The position numbers were made by a program, and so were the translations under genes. A DNA stretch of 64,000 nucleotides, from NCBI GenBank assembly GCA_046350615.1, contig JAXMAA010000002.1, forward strand, positions 149,204-213,203, in the 5' to 3' direction. The notes under the pieces are model-generated. The model saw nothing but the letters and a program-made list of their open reading frames with translations. It was not told where the DNA came from and searched no databases. This document shows, piece after piece, positions 608 through 60,959 of this stretch (position 1 is the first letter of the stretch; each line of letters opens with the position of its first letter). The DNA comes from Candidatus Saccharimonadales bacterium. GTDB lineage: Bacteria; Patescibacteriota; Saccharimonadia; Saccharimonadales; UBA7683.

Positions 608-686
608 CTGTCATCTTGAGCGCGTCGAAAGATCTGGCTGATCTGCTATGTACTTATTAGATCCTTCGACAAGCTCAGGATGGCAG
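608..686. repeat. palindromic repeat element, intergenic copy (family GTCATCYTGAGC...GCTCAGGATGRC)
   Basis: Arms ctgtcatcttgagcgcgtcgaaagatct (608-635) and agatccttcgacaagctcaggatggcag (659-686) are imperfect reverse complements around a 23-nt loop. Related copies at 5831-5911 and 25146-25214. Confidence 0.8.
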
Positions 687-1154
687 GGGTGGAGTTTCGA
701 AATTCAGTTTTAGACCAACATGGACGGTTGGGCTGATATCTTCTGGTAATGCACTCAGCGGAAACCACCTAACCTCTAAAATTTCGAGGGGACGATTAAT
801 TGCAGGTTCCTTCATCTTCTTTACAGTAGTAGCAAAGAATGAAATGTGGGCAACGGGCCACTTGATGTTTGCGGGCAGCCGTTTCTCGCCAAGAAATTGA
901 AGAGGTTGATGAATTGATACGCCTGTTTCTTCAAGAGTTTCGCGCTTACACGCAGCTTCTGCAGATTCACCCTTTTTGACTCCGCCACCCGGCAGACTCC
1001 ACTTCTGTGTGCCAATGGCGCTCTTGGTAAGAAGAATATGTTGGTTTGATATGGCAATCACTCGAACTCGCCGTGAATTATGAATGAACAATCCTTTGAT
1101 TGGGAGACCAAAGGCATTCAGTAGTTTTGCGCAGCGTGCATAGAATAGCTTCAT
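675..1154 (-). CDS. NUDIX hydrolase
   Basis: Nudix box GGGVKKGESAEAACKRETLEETGV. The stop codon and last 5 codons lie inside the palindromic element. Confidence 0.85.
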   Translation of the reverse strand: MKLFYARCAKLLNAFGLPIKGLFIHNSRRVRVIAISNQHILLTKSAIGTQKWSLPGGGVKKGESAEAACKRETLEETGVSIHQPLQFLGEKRLPANIKWPVAHISFFATTVKKMKEPAINRPLEILEVRWFPLSALPEDISPTVHVGLKLNFETPPLPS

Positions 1155-5207: not shown

Positions 5208-5625
5208 ATTTGGGGACTTTCCCATATACTGGCTGCCGGAGAGCGAAGAAGACAGCCCGGTTCTAGAGTTATTTAGTGATCCTGAAGGCCTAGAATATAT
5301 CTATGCGAGGCCCAACTCTTATGTCAATTCTCATTATGCTATGGCGCGTATTGAACGCGCAGACAGTGTCTTGGTACTAAGCGATCTGCAGGGTGCTGGG
5401 TGGAGTGATGACGAGACGCTCGATAGTTTTTTGAATGGTGCCATAGTTTATCGTAGGGCCGAAGATACATTAAAGAATCTATCATTCATAGAAGTTCATA
5501 CACATGAATGGGCTGTTCGAATGGGGCTGTTTGAGAGAGGGTTCACCCAGAGTTCCCAGAACGTGATGCGGCTTGATTTGAATCATCTACGATCTAGGCT
5601 AGGGGCGTGCGATGCCAGCTCCTAA
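5200..5625 (+). CDS. hypothetical protein
   Basis: The in-frame ATG at 5200 overlaps the upstream stop (ATGCTTGA). The stop overlaps the rsmA start. Track ORF 5041..5625 is trimmed accordingly. No family recognised. Confidence 0.5.
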   Translation: MLEFGDFPIYWLPESEEDSPVLELFSDPEGLEYIYARPNSYVNSHYAMARIERADSVLVLSDLQGAGWSDDETLDSFLNGAIVYRRAEDTLKNLSFIEVHTHEWAVRMGLFERGFTQSSQNVMRLDLNHLRSRLGACDASS

Positions 5626-6463
5626 AAAATCGCTTGGGCAGCACTGGCTGTTTGACGAGGCAAGTCTAGATGCCATGCTTGTGGCTGGCGAGGTTACTAC
5701 CGAAAACACAGTCTTAGAGGTTGGCCCGGGTCTAGGCACCCTCACGGCCAAACTCTGTCAAAACGCCAAAGAGGTCATTGCAGTAGAACTCGACGATACA
5801 TTGGCTACTGAGCTAAAGGGTAATACACTTCGTCATCTTGAGCGAAGCAAAGCGCAGCCGAAAGATCTAGTCTCAAACACAGATCAGATCCTTCGGCAGG
5901 CTCAGGATGACATCACCAATCTCACAGTAGTAAACCAGAGTATTCTTGAATTCGATCTTTCAACATTACCCAAAAACTATAAAGTCATCGCTAACATCCC
6001 GTACTACCTAACTTCAAACCTGATTCGCCGCCTGCTAGAAAGCGCTAACCCCCCAAGGGTTATGGCGCTTTTAGTACAAAAAGAAGTGGCCGAGCGTATT
6101 GCTGCTAAGCCTGGGCAAATGAGCATTCTAACTGTTGCCACCCAGTTTTGTGCCGAAGTTGAGCTAAAAGAACTTGTCCCGGCTGAACTATTTACACCGC
6201 CGCCAAAAGTTGATAGCCAAATCATCCAAATAAAACGGCGTGAAACACAGCTTTTCCCGGATGTCGATACCAAAAAGTTCTTTCATCTGGTGCGAGCCGG
6301 CTTTTCTGAAAAACGCAAAAAACTCCGTTCATCCCTAAGTGGTGGCCTGAACATTTCAAAGGTTGAAGCCGACCAGCTTTTACAAAAAGCCAGCATCTCC
6401 CTAAATACTCGTGCGCAAGAACTGAGTCTCAGAGATTGGCACAACCTCTATAAGAACATATAG
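5612..6463 (+). CDS. rsmA: 16S rRNA (adenine1518/1519-N6)-dimethyltransferase RsmA/KsgA carrying a 27-codon repeat-derived insertion
   Basis: KKSLGQHWL, VLEVGPGLGTLT SAM motif, IANIPYYLTS. Confidence 0.9.
   Translation: MPAPKKSLGQHWLFDEASLDAMLVAGEVTTENTVLEVGPGLGTLTAKLCQNAKEVIAVELDDTLATELKGNTLRHLERSKAQPKDLVSNTDQILRQAQDDITNLTVVNQSILEFDLSTLPKNYKVIANIPYYLTSNLIRRLLESANPPRVMALLVQKEVAERIAAKPGQMSILTVATQFCAEVELKELVPAELFTPPPKVDSQIIQIKRRETQLFPDVDTKKFFHLVRAGFSEKRKKLRSSLSGGLNISKVEADQLLQKASISLNTRAQELSLRDWHNLYKNI
5831..5911 (+). repeat. palindromic repeat element inserted in frame in rsmA
   Basis: gtcatcttgagcg..ccgaaagatct (5832-5868) pairs with agatccttcggcaggctcaggatgac (5886-5911). 81 nt = 27 codons, RHLERSKAQPKDLVSNTDQILRQAQDD. 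Confidence 0.8.
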
Positions 6464-8112: not shown

Positions 8113-8530
8113 GGGGATGACATAGCTTTAGACGAAGAGACCTTAACAATCTGTACCAGCGTGTTGACTTACGAACATAATTCGTTTTTTAATTGCAAAC
8201 TTTGTTGCATCAGTACGTTCAGCATTCAACGGTGCTGTATCTAGCCTTGCTGCTATGATTCAGTCTCCTGTTGCTGTACGTGCGACAGCTGCCTAATTTT
8301 AGCGTAGCCATCGATCTCTTGACGTCAGATAGAGTCAGATCGGTGTCATATTTATCTGGCTTGGTTGGCTGCGGTTTATCAGCGTAGCTTTCGACATTTC
8401 ACTGATTACGGTTTATTGGTTTTTTGTTTGTTCTTACATCCAATAATTCGTTAAATCTAGAATAAACTACACACGTAGAAGGACAGATGTTACTTTTCGG
8501 ACGCGGGTGCAATACCCGCCATCTCCACCA
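8113..8530 (+). ncRNA. ssrA: tmRNA (transfer-messenger RNA)
   Basis: 5' GGGGATGACATAGCTTTAGACG and 3' GGACGCGGGTGCAATACCCGCCATCTCCACCA (T-arm, acceptor, CCA). Internal tag frame from GCA 8195 to TAA 8294-8296 ends in ..TAA-coded Ala-Ala. Confidence 0.9.
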
Positions 8531-11026: not shown

Positions 11027-11055
11027 ATCTGTTTGAGGACTGTCCTCAAACAGAT
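11027..11055. repeat. REP-like hairpin, left copy
   Basis: atctgtttgaggac-t-gtcctcaaacagat: perfect 14-bp stem. The outer flank ttcttaa mirrors the right copy. Confidence 0.85.
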
Positions 11056-11069
11056 GGGCAAAATGTGAT

Positions 11070-11684
11070 TTATGAATTTACTAGATCTGATTTAATATCT
11101 TGAAGATCAGATCTTTTCTGTTGGTAAGATTTTAAAAATTCAAGGTAGTCTTGCTCAGACTTGAATAAATTGAGAATGGGCTCGGTCACAATCCATTCAG
11201 GAGTAGCGAGATCGCAGTAATACTTCAAACTCGAGTACTTATACCTGCGCCAGTAGCGGGGGTTCATGTGGATGTAGCGACTAATGTGATCAAGGTATGT
11301 TGCTGAGTCGATGTGACTTGCCTTGTATCTACTCTCAAACAAGGAGCCTGTGCGTTGATATTTATGGTTAAAGTATCTGCTATAGCTTGTCATGATCGCC
11401 CGCATAAAAGCAGACATAGCACCAGCCTCGTGTTGGTAGATGAGTATGTGAAAATGGTTTCCCATAAGACAGTATGCGAGTAGCTGGATGTCTCCGTGAT
11501 AATGCGGATACGTTTGCCCAACCTTATTTTTAGCTGGCTTCACCGAAAGATAGCGCTTAAATAAGCTGATAAAAAATAGCCGGTCAGAAACATCAAGAAA
11601 GATAGCTTGCCTGTTTCCTCCACGAGCGTAAATATGGTAGTAAGCTTCGGCGACGTCATGTTTAAGGATATTCCTGGACGGCAT
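11070..11684 (-). CDS. REP-associated tyrosine transposase (RAYT, IS200-like Y1 transposase family, COG1943)
   Basis: YHIYARGGNRQAIF, HUH motif MGNHFHILIY, GSLFESRYKA, catalytic-Tyr region YLDHISRYIHMNP. Confidence 0.85.
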   Translation of the reverse strand: MPSRNILKHDVAEAYYHIYARGGNRQAIFLDVSDRLFFISLFKRYLSVKPAKNKVGQTYPHYHGDIQLLAYCLMGNHFHILIYQHEAGAMSAFMRAIMTSYSRYFNHKYQRTGSLFESRYKASHIDSATYLDHISRYIHMNPRYWRRYKYSSLKYYCDLATPEWIVTEPILNLFKSEQDYLEFLKSYQQKRSDLQDIKSDLVNS

Positions 11685-11709: not shown

Positions 11710-11738
11710 ATCTGTTTGAGGACAGTCCTCAAACAGAT
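11710..11738. repeat. REP-like hairpin, right copy (inverted)
   Basis: atctgtttgaggac-a-gtcctcaaacagat, followed by ttaagaa. Confidence 0.85.
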
Positions 11739-23299: not shown

Positions 23300-23516
23300 T
23301 TCACATATATTTTCGGTATGAAGAAACCGTGCGGAGGCGAGGAGCGATATGCTCAACTCGGTGCACGGACCAATGAATAATCTTTGGTTGTGCACACCGC
23401 ACGGTTGTGTTTTGAGGAGGTCGAGCGGGTTTTTGTCTGTAGGTATTCGCGTTAGGGCGAACAGCTCGCTTCATTCCGCCAATGGCGAAACTACACCTAC
23501 CACGACTCAGCTTTGT

Positions 23517-23786: not shown

Positions 23787-23924
23787 GGTTCATTCCTCCT
23801 CAGGAATTGCCCGCCAACTTGACGAGCATATGTATTATAGCGCTTATGTAATAAAATGTCAATAGCTTACTCCTGTTAGTGCTTCTATGGAATTCTTTTA
23901 CTACCTCCGTTATACTAGATGTTA

Positions 23925-25901
23925 ATGAATGCACAGGAAATTAGACGAAAGTACTTAGAGTTTTTTGAAAAAAACGGGCATAAAGTGATCCCGCGGGCTT
24001 TGTTGGTGCCATATAATGATCCGACAACGCTTTTCACCGGTTCTGGCATGCAGCCGCTTATTCCGTATCTCCTGGGTGAGCCACACCCGGCTGGTACACG
24101 TGTAACGGATAGTCAGACGTGCCTGAGAGCAATGGATATCGAGGATGTTGGTGATGATCGGCACACAACATTTTTTGAAATGCTCGGTAACTGGAGTCTG
24201 GGTGATTACGGGAAGAAAGAGCAAATTGAGTGGTTCTTTACTTTTTTGGTAGAAATTGCCGGTCTCGATCCAAACAATATCTACATCACCTGTTTTATCG
24301 GCGACGAAGAGGCCGGTATACCACGCGATACCGAAGCGGCTGAAATCTGGCAAAGACTTTTTGAGAGTAAGAGTATAGAGGCAGGTATTGTGGCCATTGG
24401 CTCGCAAGAAGATGGCAATAAACGTGGGGTCAAACCTGGCGAGAGAATTTTTTATTATGATGACGGCGAAAACTGGTGGAGCCGCAACGGCGGTATAGCT
24501 AAAACCCCTATTGGCGACCCTTGTGGGCCAGACAGTGAAGTTTTTTATGATTTCGGCGAGGCTGCTCATAAGCCCGGCTTTGGCGAAGCCCATCCGGCGA
24601 GTGATTCCGGCCGCTTTATTGAGATTGGCAACCAGGTGTTCATGGAATATAAGCGTACTGAAAGTGGTTTTGAGAAGTTGGCTAAACCAAATATTGATTT
24701 TGGTGGTGGCTTGGAGCGTATTGCACAGGCGGCAATTAATTCATCTGATATGTTTAAGATTTCGATCTTGTGGCCAATTATTGAGGAGCTGGAGCGGATT
24801 TCTGGTAAAAAGTACGATAATCACCGCGAGAGTATGCAAGTAATCGCTGATCATCTGAGGGCCGCCACATTTTTGGCGGTCGATGGAGTAAAGCCGAACA
24901 ACAAAGAGCAGGGCTATGTGATGAGGCGATTGCTGCGGCGAGCCATTCGTTTTGCATTTGAGCTTGGCGTTGAGCAGAACTTTTTGCAAGATGTCGTGCC
25001 AGTTATCGCCGATTTATACAAAGATGATTACTCGGAAGTTGCCGCAAAACGCGATGAAGTGATTGATGTTTTGATACGAGAAGAAAAGGCCTTTCGCCAA
25101 ACTCTCAGAAAAGGGTTGAAGGAGTTTACAAAGCTCTTCAATCGCCGTCATTCCCGGCTCGATCGGGGATCTCGTGCCAATACTAACGAGATCCCCAGTC
25201 AAGCTGAGGATGACAAAGCTGCTGGCCTGTCGCATGGCGAAGCTATTTTTACTCTTTACGATACCTATGGGTTTCCGGTAGAACTTTCTGTCGAAGAAGC
25301 CTTTAAGCAAGGAATTGAGCTGGATGATACATGGCGAGAACAGTTTGAGGCGAAGATGAAGCAGCAGCGTGAACGTTCGCAAACGGCCGCCAAGGGTACG
25401 TTTAAGGGCGGACTTGGCGGGCAGCAGTTAATTCATAAAAAGTATCACACTGCCACGCACTTGATGTATCAGGCACTGCGTGATGTTTTGGGAGATCATG
25501 TCATTCAGCGTGGCTCAAATATTACCGAAGAACGCCTTCGGTTCGATTTTTCTCATCCTGAAAAAGTAACGCGCGAACAGTTAAATCAAGTAGAAGAGAT
25601 TGTAAATAGGGAAATTGCGAAAGATCTGCAAATTTCTTGGGCCGAGTATCCGACCGAAGAAGCAACCGGTTCTCTCGGTGCGTTGGGGCAATTCGGCGAT
25701 CGCTATGGTGATACGGTGAAGGTGTATTCAATGAAAGATCCAAAATCTTCTGAAGACGAGCGGCCCTTTAGTTTTGAAATTTGCGGTGGTCCGCACGTAG
25801 ACCACACCTCACAACTGCTGGAAGATGGCAAAAAGTTTAAAATCTTGAAGGAAGAAGCTAGTTCAGCTGGCATTCGCCGCATCAAAGCCGTTTTGGCTTA
25901 A
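23925..25901 (+). CDS. alaS: alanine--tRNA ligase, short form lacking the C-Ala domain, with a 23-codon repeat-derived insertion
   Basis: EIRRKYLEFFEKNGH, FTGSGMQP, HTATHLM, CGGPHV. TATACT at 23911-23916 lies 8 nt before the ATG at 23925; alternative ATG at 23919. Confidence 0.93.
   Translation: MNAQEIRRKYLEFFEKNGHKVIPRALLVPYNDPTTLFTGSGMQPLIPYLLGEPHPAGTRVTDSQTCLRAMDIEDVGDDRHTTFFEMLGNWSLGDYGKKEQIEWFFTFLVEIAGLDPNNIYITCFIGDEEAGIPRDTEAAEIWQRLFESKSIEAGIVAIGSQEDGNKRGVKPGERIFYYDDGENWWSRNGGIAKTPIGDPCGPDSEVFYDFGEAAHKPGFGEAHPASDSGRFIEIGNQVFMEYKRTESGFEKLAKPNIDFGGGLERIAQAAINSSDMFKISILWPIIEELERISGKKYDNHRESMQVIADHLRAATFLAVDGVKPNNKEQGYVMRRLLRRAIRFAFELGVEQNFLQDVVPVIADLYKDDYSEVAAKRDEVIDVLIREEKAFRQTLRKGLKEFTKLFNRRHSRLDRGSRANTNEIPSQAEDDKAAGLSHGEAIFTLYDTYGFPVELSVEEAFKQGIELDDTWREQFEAKMKQQRERSQTAAKGTFKGGLGGQQLIHKKYHTATHLMYQALRDVLGDHVIQRGSNITEERLRFDFSHPEKVTREQLNQVEEIVNREIAKDLQISWAEYPTEEATGSLGALGQFGDRYGDTVKVYSMKDPKSSEDERPFSFEICGGPHVDHTSQLLEDGKKFKILKEEASSAGIRRIKAVLA
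25146..25214 (+). repeat. palindromic repeat element inserted in frame in alaS
   Basis: gtcattcccggctcgatcggggatctcg (25147-25174) pairs with cgagatccccagtcaagctgaggatgac (25187-25214). 69 nt = 23 codons, RHSRLDRGSRANTNEIPSQAEDD. Confidence 0.8.
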
Positions 25902-30472: not shown

Positions 30473-30649
30473 TATATCTATCAATCACTTCGTTTCTTTG
30501 TCAAGCTTAGGTTTGCAAAACACGGTGGGAACAAGCGATTGGTCATATGTGAACAGTCGTACGAGATAGAACCCTAAAAAAGATAAACAATTAACTTACA
30601 AGGTCGGAATATCTCTTTTCAGCAATTGCTGAAGCAAGACGCAGTAGCT

Positions 30650-33241
<2,592 letters not shown>

Positions 33242-35616: not shown

Positions 35617-35637
35617 GTAATTTGTTACAAGTTAAGC

Positions 35638-35665
35638 TTGAAATATCGAGAGGGAAGAGTAAACT
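35638..35665 (+). promoter_or_regulatory. candidate promoter for the structured element
   Basis: TTGAAA (35638-35643), 16-nt spacer, TAAACT (35660-35665). Confidence 0.35.
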
Positions 35666-35712
35666 AAAATACAAGTTACGTGCGCCACGTCTCGGCTGCA
35701 TATAACGCATGT

Positions 35713-36254
35713 TAACAAACTAAACGAGTATGAGTTGAGCACTCGCTCGTCAGGAGTTCTTGCTAATCTGTTTGCATGGATTATCAAGAACTCCTGACTG
35801 AGCGTGTCCTTGCTCAAGAGCAAGGCCTACTTTCAGCTAGGGGTAGCAATATCCGCAAGATGAGGGAGAGCTCATGAGTTTGTTCTCTGGCACCACCACG
35901 CTGGATTGTGAGCCACACTGGCGCACCGCCGGCGAGCTGGCCGCTACCTCCGGGATGATGACCGGAGGTTCTGAGGCGTAGATCGCGCTCTGCGTTCGAA
36001 GCTTCTTTGCCAGCCAAATATCTGATCACCCTCCCGCCGGGTGGGTGATCACTGCGTCAACAGCGACGCCACAAAATGGCGGAGCAGGAAGTGCTGAAAG
36101 TACGGAGGAGTAATATCTTGCGTTCGGACGTCGTAGTTGGGCTAGTTGTTTCGGCGGGGGCCGAGGCACACCAAAAACACCATCCGTCATCAAGAACCCC
36201 TCTAACCTGAAAGCACCCTGCTCCGCCAAGTGGCGAAACTCGTTTAGTTTGTTA
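35713..36254 (+). ncRNA. candidate large structured ncRNA (or ORF-less MITE), unassigned family
   Basis: A perfect 17-bp pairing of the ends, taacaaactaaacgagt (35713-35729) with actcgtttagtttgtta (36238-36254). GC-rich and hairpin-dense, with a long-range 11+5 bp helix 36078-36095/36212-36227. No credible ORF. Strand is tentative. Confidence 0.5.
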
Positions 36255-60872: not shown

Positions 60873-60959
60873 GCGCGAGTGGCGGAATTGGTAGACGCGC
60901 TAGCTTCAGGTGCTAGTGTACGCAAGTACGTGGAGGTTCAAGTCCTCTCTCGCGCACCA
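60873..60959 (+). tRNA. tRNA-Leu (anticodon CAG), CCA encoded
   Basis: Cloverleaf folded by hand: acceptor gcgcgag/ctcgcgc, anticodon loop ttCAGgt, long variable arm gtacgcaagtac, T-arm ggaggttcaagtcctct, ACCA. Confidence 0.9.

Follow-up and report, generated by a model that had tools for sequence, protein, structure and literature searches.

An alaS gene that carries in frame, within an essential coding region, a stretch of DNA able to fold back upon itself raises the question of what this stretch is and whether it is kept as peptide or as nucleic acid. The gene, which encodes alanyl-tRNA synthetase (AlaRS), lies in a 64-kb stretch of DNA (the window) of a Candidatus Saccharimonadales bacterium, and copies of the repeat in this host were counted within the window; loci of relatives and orthologous proteins are referred to by labels of this analysis (L and P followed by a number). 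We think it probable that the 69-nt insert in alaS is an inverted doublet of CGTC-type repetitive extragenic palindrome (REP) units, of the class of the Rickettsia palindromic elements (RPEs) RPE-4 and RPE-6, which was inserted once and is now kept as a nucleic-acid hairpin rather than as a peptide.

An NCBI protein with 100% identity to the AlaRS of the window comes from a Candidatus Saccharimonadales metagenome-assembled genome and is recorded as 'alanine--tRNA ligase-related protein'; the window AlaRS aligns with that of Aquifex aeolicus (1riq). The insert (25146-25214) consists of 23 in-frame codons without a stop and encodes RHSRLDRGSRANTNEIPSQAEDD. Its first codon, CGT at 25146, lies 1227 nt (409 codons) past the ATG at 23919, its final GAC ends at 25214, and the motif FTLYDTYGFP (context ...IFTLYDTYGFP) begins 11 codons downstream; tryptic peptides of the insert would be LDR, GSR and ANTNEIPSQAEDDK. 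The minimum free energy of RNA from 25140-25220 is -43.0 kcal/mol for the plus strand (z = -6.8) and -42.5 kcal/mol for the minus strand (z = -6.9), and 0 of 200 shuffled sequences folded as well. An earlier sequence-only reading, which had described a 69-nt palindromic insert of 23 codons at this position upstream of FTLYDTYGFP, was borne out in its coordinates, reading frame and strong fold. It had also proposed that differences between the arms are compatible with G-U pairing on the sense strand. The arms delimited by a repeat finder (25147-25175 and 25186-25214, 79% complementary) mismatch at 6 positions, all of them transitions; counted on the sequence, three give G.U on the sense and three on the antisense strand. 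Because of this 3/3 split and of the equal folding of both strands, G-U compatibility favours neither strand, and a sense-strand bias was rejected.

The term palindrome was right in that the insert is a self-complementary hairpin, but its build is more complex: two small REP hairpins of opposite orientation form a doublet, the tags pointing outward (Table 1). Read on the plus strand, the right unit is CGAG-ATCCCCAG-TCAAG-CTGAGGAT-GACA, its tag TGTC lying at 25215-25212 of the minus strand. In DNA of seven orthologous loci, the same doublet architecture was found at the same codon position of alaS in L001, L002, L004 and L005, one of the units reading CGTC-ATCCCGGA-CTTGA-TCCGGGAT-CCAG; the spacer is 37-38 nt long in L001 and L002 and 12 nt in the window. 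The alaS site of L006 and L007 is occupied by a short palindrome of a second subfamily, type B (GTCATCTTGAGCG..GTCGAAAGATCT / AGATCCTTCGAC..GCTCAGGATGAC), the halves of which pair chiefly with each other and to which two further copies in the window belong, one in rsmA and one at 609-685. Types A (the doublets) and B are therefore related subfamilies.

Sixteen units from genic and intergenic sites were aligned, giving the consensus CGTC-ATTCCCGA-CTYGA-TCGGGAAT-CCAGT with invariant G4, T5 and A7. The tail is CCAG in 11 of them and CTCG in both units of the window's alaS. Of the stem cells in the alignment, 93.5% are paired, 6 of the 8 pairs are altered in both partners, and none of 500 shuffles attained the covariation score of the alignment; shifting the 3' partner by 1-3 columns reduced pairing to 21-48%. 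A covariance model built from these 16 units (R1) recognized the left half of the alaS element with 38 bits (E = 1.1e-7) and the right half, on the minus strand, with 37.5 bits (E = 1.5e-7), and matched the halves of the rsmA copy weakly (15.1 and 9.6 bits). Matches down to 1e-9 were obtained at intergenic and genic sites of relatives; intergenic dimers are present in L001, L003, L004 and L007, and family members occur in independent assemblies from NCBI, ENA, JGI and Logan. Rfam 15 gave no match at 25146-25214 or 5831-5911 even at E <= 1 and sub-threshold chance matches only at 609-685, and a string search of the literature with GTCATCCTGAGC returned primer sequences only. The proposal that alaS harbours a member of an RPE-like family is upheld by the anatomy of the units, by their genic and intergenic kin and by the lack of the 23 residues in most orthologues.

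Substitution was compared inside and outside the element at third codon positions, in orthologous elements from three sets of close relatives. In rsmA, 6 of 27 third positions vary inside the element among the window, L011, L033 and L034, against 70.6% outside. The comparisons within this four-genome set share a phylogeny and are not mutually independent; in a scan along the gene, the element was the unique minimum, every 27-codon interval outside it having at least 15 variable positions, and amino-acid variability was 26% both inside and outside. In another clade, with a type A doublet in rsmA, L035 and L036 differ at 4 of 31 third positions inside and at 107 of 259 outside. For alaS, L037 and L038 differ at 4 of 26 third positions inside against 248 of 641 outside, a level as low as in 0.4% of equal-sized intervals, and their residues differ by 15% in the insert and by 6.7% in the rest of AlaRS. 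Over the three sets, third-position variation is 2.5-8 times lower inside the element than in the remainder of the host gene.

The stems themselves change in a concerted manner. One pair of the rsmA stem is C-G in the window, U.G in L011 and L033 and U-A in L034, and compensatory changes were also found in orthologous units of L037 versus L038 and of L001/L005 versus L002. The alaS hairpins, of -43 to -60 kcal/mol, persist despite saturation of synonymous sites in the host gene (third-position identity 0.39-0.48). An idiosyncratic 11-nt bulge and the apical loop are common to the rsmA copies of the window, L011, L033 and L034, so that these four are clearly orthologous. Slow synonymous sites combined with a freely changing peptide point to constraint on the nucleic acid, homogenization by gene conversion from other copies being the alternative.

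The history that we propose would begin with one doublet insertion in the ancestor of a Saccharimonadales subclade whose AlaRS has 'KLF...HGE' flanks and an enlarged segment. The doublet would probably have entered as a single-stranded DNA hairpin handled in trans by an HUH/Y1 transposase, and it may have survived because the site tolerates a disordered, translated loop of 23 residues. Its later upkeep would be at the nucleic-acid level, as a hairpin in mRNA or DNA, because orthologous copies conserve synonymous positions while the peptide changes as fast or faster. Stabilization or processing of mRNA, a translational pause and a site for a DNA-binding protein are candidate roles of such a hairpin. 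We regard it as possible, at somewhat less than even chances, that CGTC doublets in essential genes are functional structured elements under purifying selection on the hairpin, translated as disposable loops.

Several points weigh against inserted-once-and-maintained doublets. The constraint was measured on homologous elements and not on the alaS copy of the window, which is the most diverged of its set (66-72% identical to the orthologous units, about the gene-wide nucleotide identity) and has no close relative in the databases searched, the best AlaRS match to its protein being 82% identical. What looks like selection could also be produced by gene conversion from copies elsewhere in the genome. 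Divergence between the rsmA genes of the window and L011 is mosaic, with 1-4 differences per 81 nt in 5963-6150 and 20-30 elsewhere (L033 has 16-23 in the same interval), which suggests recent recombination between lineages. Because of this mosaic, the significance of a simple pairwise Fisher test between the two is overstated; that test was set aside, and the four-genome sliding-window test was used instead. The units in the covariation count were partly chosen by a hairpin finder. Neighbour-joining trees do not group the insert-bearing AlaRS proteins as one clade. As to movement, CGTC REPs have no dedicated transposase, and borrowed transposases have been suggested (PMC3733652); the hairpin that flanks a Y1 transposase gene in the window, ATCTGTTTGAGGAC-N-GTCCTCAAACAGAT followed by AAAATGTGATTT, bears no relation to these REPs.

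Table 1. Coordinates of the alaS doublet, its kin and the Y1 transposase gene in the window.
Feature	Position	Strand	Description
alaS	23919-25901	+	660-residue alanine--tRNA ligase; domains tRNA-synt_2c (PF01411) and tRNA_SAD (PF07973)
Left REP unit	25146-25174	+	tag CGTC 25146-25149; stem ATTCCCGG 25150-25157; loop CTCGA 25158-25162
Left REP unit, 3' half	25163-25174	+	stem TCGGGGAT 25163-25170; tail CTCG 25171-25174
Spacer	25175-25186		TGCCAATACTAA; 12 nt between units; apical loop of the long hairpin
Right REP unit	25187-25215	-	TGTC-ATCCTCAG-CTTGA-CTGGGGAT-CTCG; also found independently by the unit finder
rsmA copy	5831-5911	+	81-nt type B palindrome in frame in rsmA (5612-6463); encodes RHLERSKAQPKDLVSNTDQILRQAQDD
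Third copy	609-685		type B; between convergent genes; overlaps the 3' end of a NUDIX open reading frame, 675-1154 (-)
Y1 (HUH) IS200-like transposase gene	11070-11684	-	204 residues; Pfam Y1_Tnp E = 5e-12

In the classical picture of RPEs, the element would be a neutral relic, an old and tolerated in-frame selfish palindrome that is decaying and whose hairpin is without function or selection. The 3/3 split of the transition mismatches between strands is what undirected decay predicts, the alaS units of the window are no closer to their orthologous units than the gene average, the peptides of P0013, P0050, P0020 and P0022 are no longer REP-like, and the copy in L007 folds poorly (-17 kcal/mol). 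Decay without selection does not account for third-position conservation specific to the element in three independent comparisons, for compensatory stem changes between orthologous copies or for strong hairpins kept beside saturated synonymous sites. We judge the neutral relic unlikely, with perhaps a quarter of the weight of belief.

The two sites differ in occupation among relatives. Most of the 120 best AlaRS matches (74-82% identical) are 628-633 residues long, lack the 23 residues and read ..KL(T/A)xDGLTGxE.. at the site. Those with ..KLF...HGE.. have inserts of 13-40 residues exactly here (P0002, P0003, P0007, P0009, P0013, P0026/P0029, P0036 and P0050); some are clear REP products in various frames and others are no longer REP-like. 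The alaS insertion is apparently old, being common to relatives whose AlaRS is only 76-83% identical. RsmA has a basic length of 256-259 residues, and at least 35 of 120 orthologues carry REP-type inserts at the site used in the window. The insert peptides include RHSRLDRGS, RHSELDSES, VIPAEAGTQ, SFPRRRESS, WIPDQVRND and ..SGMT. All alleles in about 50 orthologues of the two genes are in frame and free of stops, in a protein database that would miss disrupted genes.

In lineages that have the family, an element usually occupies the alaS site, and the flanking DNA holds few intergenic copies. R1 found type A units only in L007, L009 and L011 among 353 kb of loci from GTDB representatives and only in L037, L038 and L086 among 786 kb of metagenome loci; a wider spread of the type A unit among these Saccharimonadales loci was rejected, the unit being confined to few lineages near the window. 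Unfilled alaS sites read GGT CTG ACC and filled ones GGG ATG ACG, in strongly diverged sequences, which hints that the target may resemble the element end. Multiple units were also encountered: RsmA P0147 has 107 extra residues from several stacked doublets, P0145 and P0178 have 60-61, and REP-type peptides stand at the annotated N terminus of RsmA P0125 and P0129. It seems that sites which already hold one REP gather more of them. In L009 (10239-10363), the right unit in rsmA has about 30 extra nt in its loop with a small hairpin of their own (CCCCG...CGGGG), an arrangement that resembles a nested insertion. L001 (1605-4320) has a reverse transcriptase gene (RVT_1) and a bAvd gene some 2 kb upstream of alaS; the pair looks like a cassette of a diversity-generating retroelement.

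Patchy occupation is presumably some mix of old retention, loss and re-colonization. If re-colonization prevailed, the loops of alaS and rsmA would be hot spots, colonized repeatedly through target preference or through REPs attracting REPs; the alaS copy of the window would be a fairly recent arrival or replacement, and the similarity between orthologous copies would reflect a conserved master sequence rather than constraint in place. Fitch parsimony on the neighbour-joining trees required at least 20 state changes for RsmA and at least 16 for AlaRS, the same alaS site holds type A doublets (L001, L002, L004 and L005) or a short type B palindrome (L006 and L007), frames differ at the same site, units are stacked (the insert of P0147, extra units in L037 relative to L038, and the nested insert of L009), and the lengths of RsmA proteins without insert are uniform, as would hardly be expected after many precise losses. 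These trees, however, are without support values, all insert-bearing AlaRS share the KLF...HGE flanks, consistent with a single origin, the four rsmA copies with the common bulge and apical loop are clearly orthologous, and no pair of close relatives was found to differ in presence of the element at either site. A hot spot is an improbable explanation, about one chance in ten in our estimate.

The other copies in the window bear on the reading frame. The rsmA copy (-38.9 kcal/mol, z = -7.0) has orthologues in L011, L033 and L034 and, as the sequence-only reading noticed, shares with the alaS copy the ends CGT CAT ... GAT GAC and the codon phase (from 5612 to 5831, 219 nt or 73 codons). By chance, the pattern GTCAT-N40-70-GGATGAC would be expected 0.14 times in the window; it was found twice. 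Scanning the full 64 kb with a sliding fold window added the copy at 609-685, very like that in rsmA, which brings the number of elements to three. Stops are absent from 3 of 6 frames in the alaS copy, 2 of 6 in the rsmA copy and 0 of 6 in the copy at 609-685; the idea that the element is free of stops only in the observed phase was thus rejected for alaS, and mechanically the frame is restricted only by a TGA that the GAATGACG end contains in one of three frames. At the 5' end, orthologous inserts are read in all three frames (RH.., VI.. and SF..), at the 3' end in two; classified by peptide motif, RsmA inserts are RH in 21 cases, SF in 8 and VI in 1, and AlaRS inserts are VI in 5 and RH in 2-3. 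Since frames, subfamilies and unit numbers differ between lineages, the phase shared in the window is not a rule of the family, and it was rejected as such.

Another explanation would make the insert an untranslated intervening sequence, which the ribosome would bypass or which would be cut out of the mRNA, for instance through RNase III-type cleavage and religation. A very stable hairpin exactly at the boundaries of the insert, conserved at the nucleotide rather than the peptide level, would fit. The alleles of about 50 orthologues nevertheless keep frame and remain free of stops, whereas the intergenic copy has stops in six frames; there is no Rfam match, and R. conorii proteins with N-terminal RPE-1 were reported to be expressed in vivo (PMC3733652). 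We consider this explanation very improbable.

In an AlphaFold2 model of the window AlaRS (P0001; mean pLDDT, the predicted local distance difference test score, 69.5), the insert corresponds to residues 408-430. It prolongs the helix 370-414, then pLDDT falls below 50 at 416-430, before the helix 437-448. Aligned with 1riq, the insert falls in the short connection ..IQKALEEGRKTLSGKEVF.. ahead of the YDTYGFP helix, at the tip of a helical hairpin in the tRNA-synthetase core (low-confidence in the AlphaFold model). The simplest reading of the model is a tolerated, exposed and probably disordered loop. The same linker has non-palindromic extensions in other lineages (P0014, P0039 and P0084), as would be expected if no mobile element were involved and the insert were a lineage-specific loop extension, or an assembly artefact, self-complementary by chance; with a fold at z = -6.8, an R1 match of E = 1e-7 and kin in the window and in independent assemblies, that notion is refuted by the family evidence and retains almost no probability.

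How the element moved was approached through its junctions and through a transposase gene. No target-site duplication was found at the alaS junctions (AATCGC/CGTC ... GACA/AAGCTG) or at those of rsmA. The Y1 transposase of the window was matched by published RAYT (REP-associated tyrosine transposase) and TIRYT sequences with phmmer (E = 1.2e-14) and scored 41 bits with the NCBIfam RAYT model, under the cut-off of 80. The gene and the direct copies of the hairpin described above that flank it (11027-11055 and 11710-11738) have a DEAD-box helicase gene on one side and a trehalase-like gene on the other; the hairpin has a perfect 14-bp stem and is absent from 36 related loci. Within the 64 kb, a RAYT gene flanked by REP units was therefore rejected: a Y1 transposase is present, but other hairpins flank it. 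This transposase is a possible trans-acting mobilizer of the REP units, which fits the borrowing suggested in PMC3733652.

The copy at 609-685 is lacking in a close relative, L033. About 137 nt of the window (583 to ~720) that include this copy are absent from L033 (5186-5201). They are bordered by an imperfect 13-nt direct repeat (TTTAAGCCAACA / TTTTAGACCAACA) and rewrite the C terminus of the NUDIX hydrolase (..GLKLNFETPPLPS, compared with ..GLKFQAAI in L033). The difference is either an insertion in the lineage of the window or a repeat-mediated deletion in L033. A larger miniature inverted-repeat transposable element (MITE) with outer arms around 609-685 was considered and rejected, the outer flanks pairing weakly and not being repeated elsewhere.

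The window has other structured regions. Upstream of alaS, in the 620-nt gap that separates it from a GSDH-like gene, 23321-23410 folds into a hairpin of -43.6 kcal/mol (AACCGTGCGG...CCGCACGGTT) that could be a terminator or a leader structure. About 600 nt at 35632-36249 are without a convincing open reading frame and contain the most stable hairpin of the window (35749-35798, with a 20-bp stem and -49 kcal/mol in a 90-nt frame) and more strong hairpins at 35891-35980 and 36001-36090, with no Rfam match; a structured RNA that has escaped annotation may lie here. At 30542-30678, the Rfam lysM-TM7 RNA motif was matched below threshold (37.9 bits, E = 0.0025; gathering score 61.5), which fits an origin in Saccharibacteria. 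A tmRNA lies at 8113-8530 and a tRNA at 60873-60956.

In-frame palindromic repeats have so far been an oddity known from Rickettsia and a few Proteobacteria. The CGTC REP architecture is here extended to the candidate phyla radiation, to a very distant, host-dependent bacterium with a reduced genome. New are the host phylum, the persistent or recurrent filling of the same two loops in essential genes and the signs of nucleotide-level constraint in replicate comparisons, which would not be predicted for decaying relics. Public metagenomes contain orthologous alleles of the two genes by the dozen, some with the element and some lacking it. They amount to a natural experiment, by which it can be tested whether such elements are selfish relics or functional structures and how CGTC REPs without a known transposase move. 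Marker proteins also change in length through these inserts, which can mislead annotation. If the hairpin is indeed selected, a tiny, gene-dense genome would hold structured functional elements within its coding sequence, and not junk as supposed for RPEs.

Among known systems, MITEs are likewise short, non-autonomous and hairpin-forming and sometimes lie in frame within genes. The ends of the present elements, however, are small stem-loops with a 4-nt tag and not terminal inverted repeats of 15-30 bp, and the genic junctions lack duplications, imperfect direct repeats flanking the 609-685 copy only. REPINs consist of two inverted REPs folding into one hairpin; by definition they lie outside genes, and hundreds of copies are typical (Bertels & Rainey 2011, PMC3116915; Nunvar et al. 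2010, PMC2817692). The REPIN-RAYT system resembles the present one in having inverted REPs and a spacer in one long hairpin, a vertical, long-lived inheritance and a Y1/HUH transposase in the genome. It differs in its tag, GTAG instead of CGTC, and the Y1 protein of the window is below the RAYT cut-off and has unrelated flanking hairpins.

RPEs were reportedly described by Ogata et al. in 2000 and 2002. Like the elements studied here, they are palindromic repeats that sit in frame in the housekeeping genes of a host-dependent bacterium with a small genome and are translated as extra surface segments; the host genes stay intact, and orthologues without the element exist. They are generally described as decaying relics. 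The present elements occur in another taxon and their orthologous copies look constrained at synonymous sites, and RPE-1 is longer (~100-150 bp). The link to RPEs is made only through the equation of R. conorii RPE-6 with CGTC-1 and of RPE-4 with CGTC-4 (PMC3733652).

The closest parallel is the CGTC-tagged REP superfamily, in which a CGTC tag (variants TGTC and CCTC) is followed by an 8-9 bp stem opening with A-T and T-A, a 4-5 nt loop and a CCA tail, mostly in inverted dimers with variable spacers (Di Nocera, De Gregorio & Rocco 2013, PMC3733652). These REPs are known from five phyla, mostly from Alphaproteobacteria; in-frame genic units or dimers encode 20-30 residues, with tRNA synthetases and the R. 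conorii dimethyladenosine transferase among the hosts, and yield peptides such as SFPRKRES, VIPAKAGI, CHSRESGNP, RHSELVSGS, DSRFRGND, WIPAFTGMT and ..GND/..GMT (PMC3733652). We found no literature report of REP, REPIN or RPE elements in Saccharibacteria, Patescibacteria or the candidate phyla radiation. The alaS units have CGTC/TGTC tags, an 8-bp stem opening with AT and a 5-nt loop in an inverted doublet, closest to CGTC-2-like (8-bp stem, 5-nt loop) and CGTC-1-like (4-nt loop) units, and their relatives add the CCA(G) tail, in-frame genic copies and the peptides RHS.., VIPA.., SFPR.., ..GMT and ..ND. From its sequence, the alaS element is by all appearances a CGTC REP in every respect except the tail. 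What sets the present family apart is this tail in the window (CTCG and not CCA), a low copy number (3 in 64 kb), the type B subfamily, the filling of the same two gene loops across many lineages and the evidence of constraint at synonymous sites.

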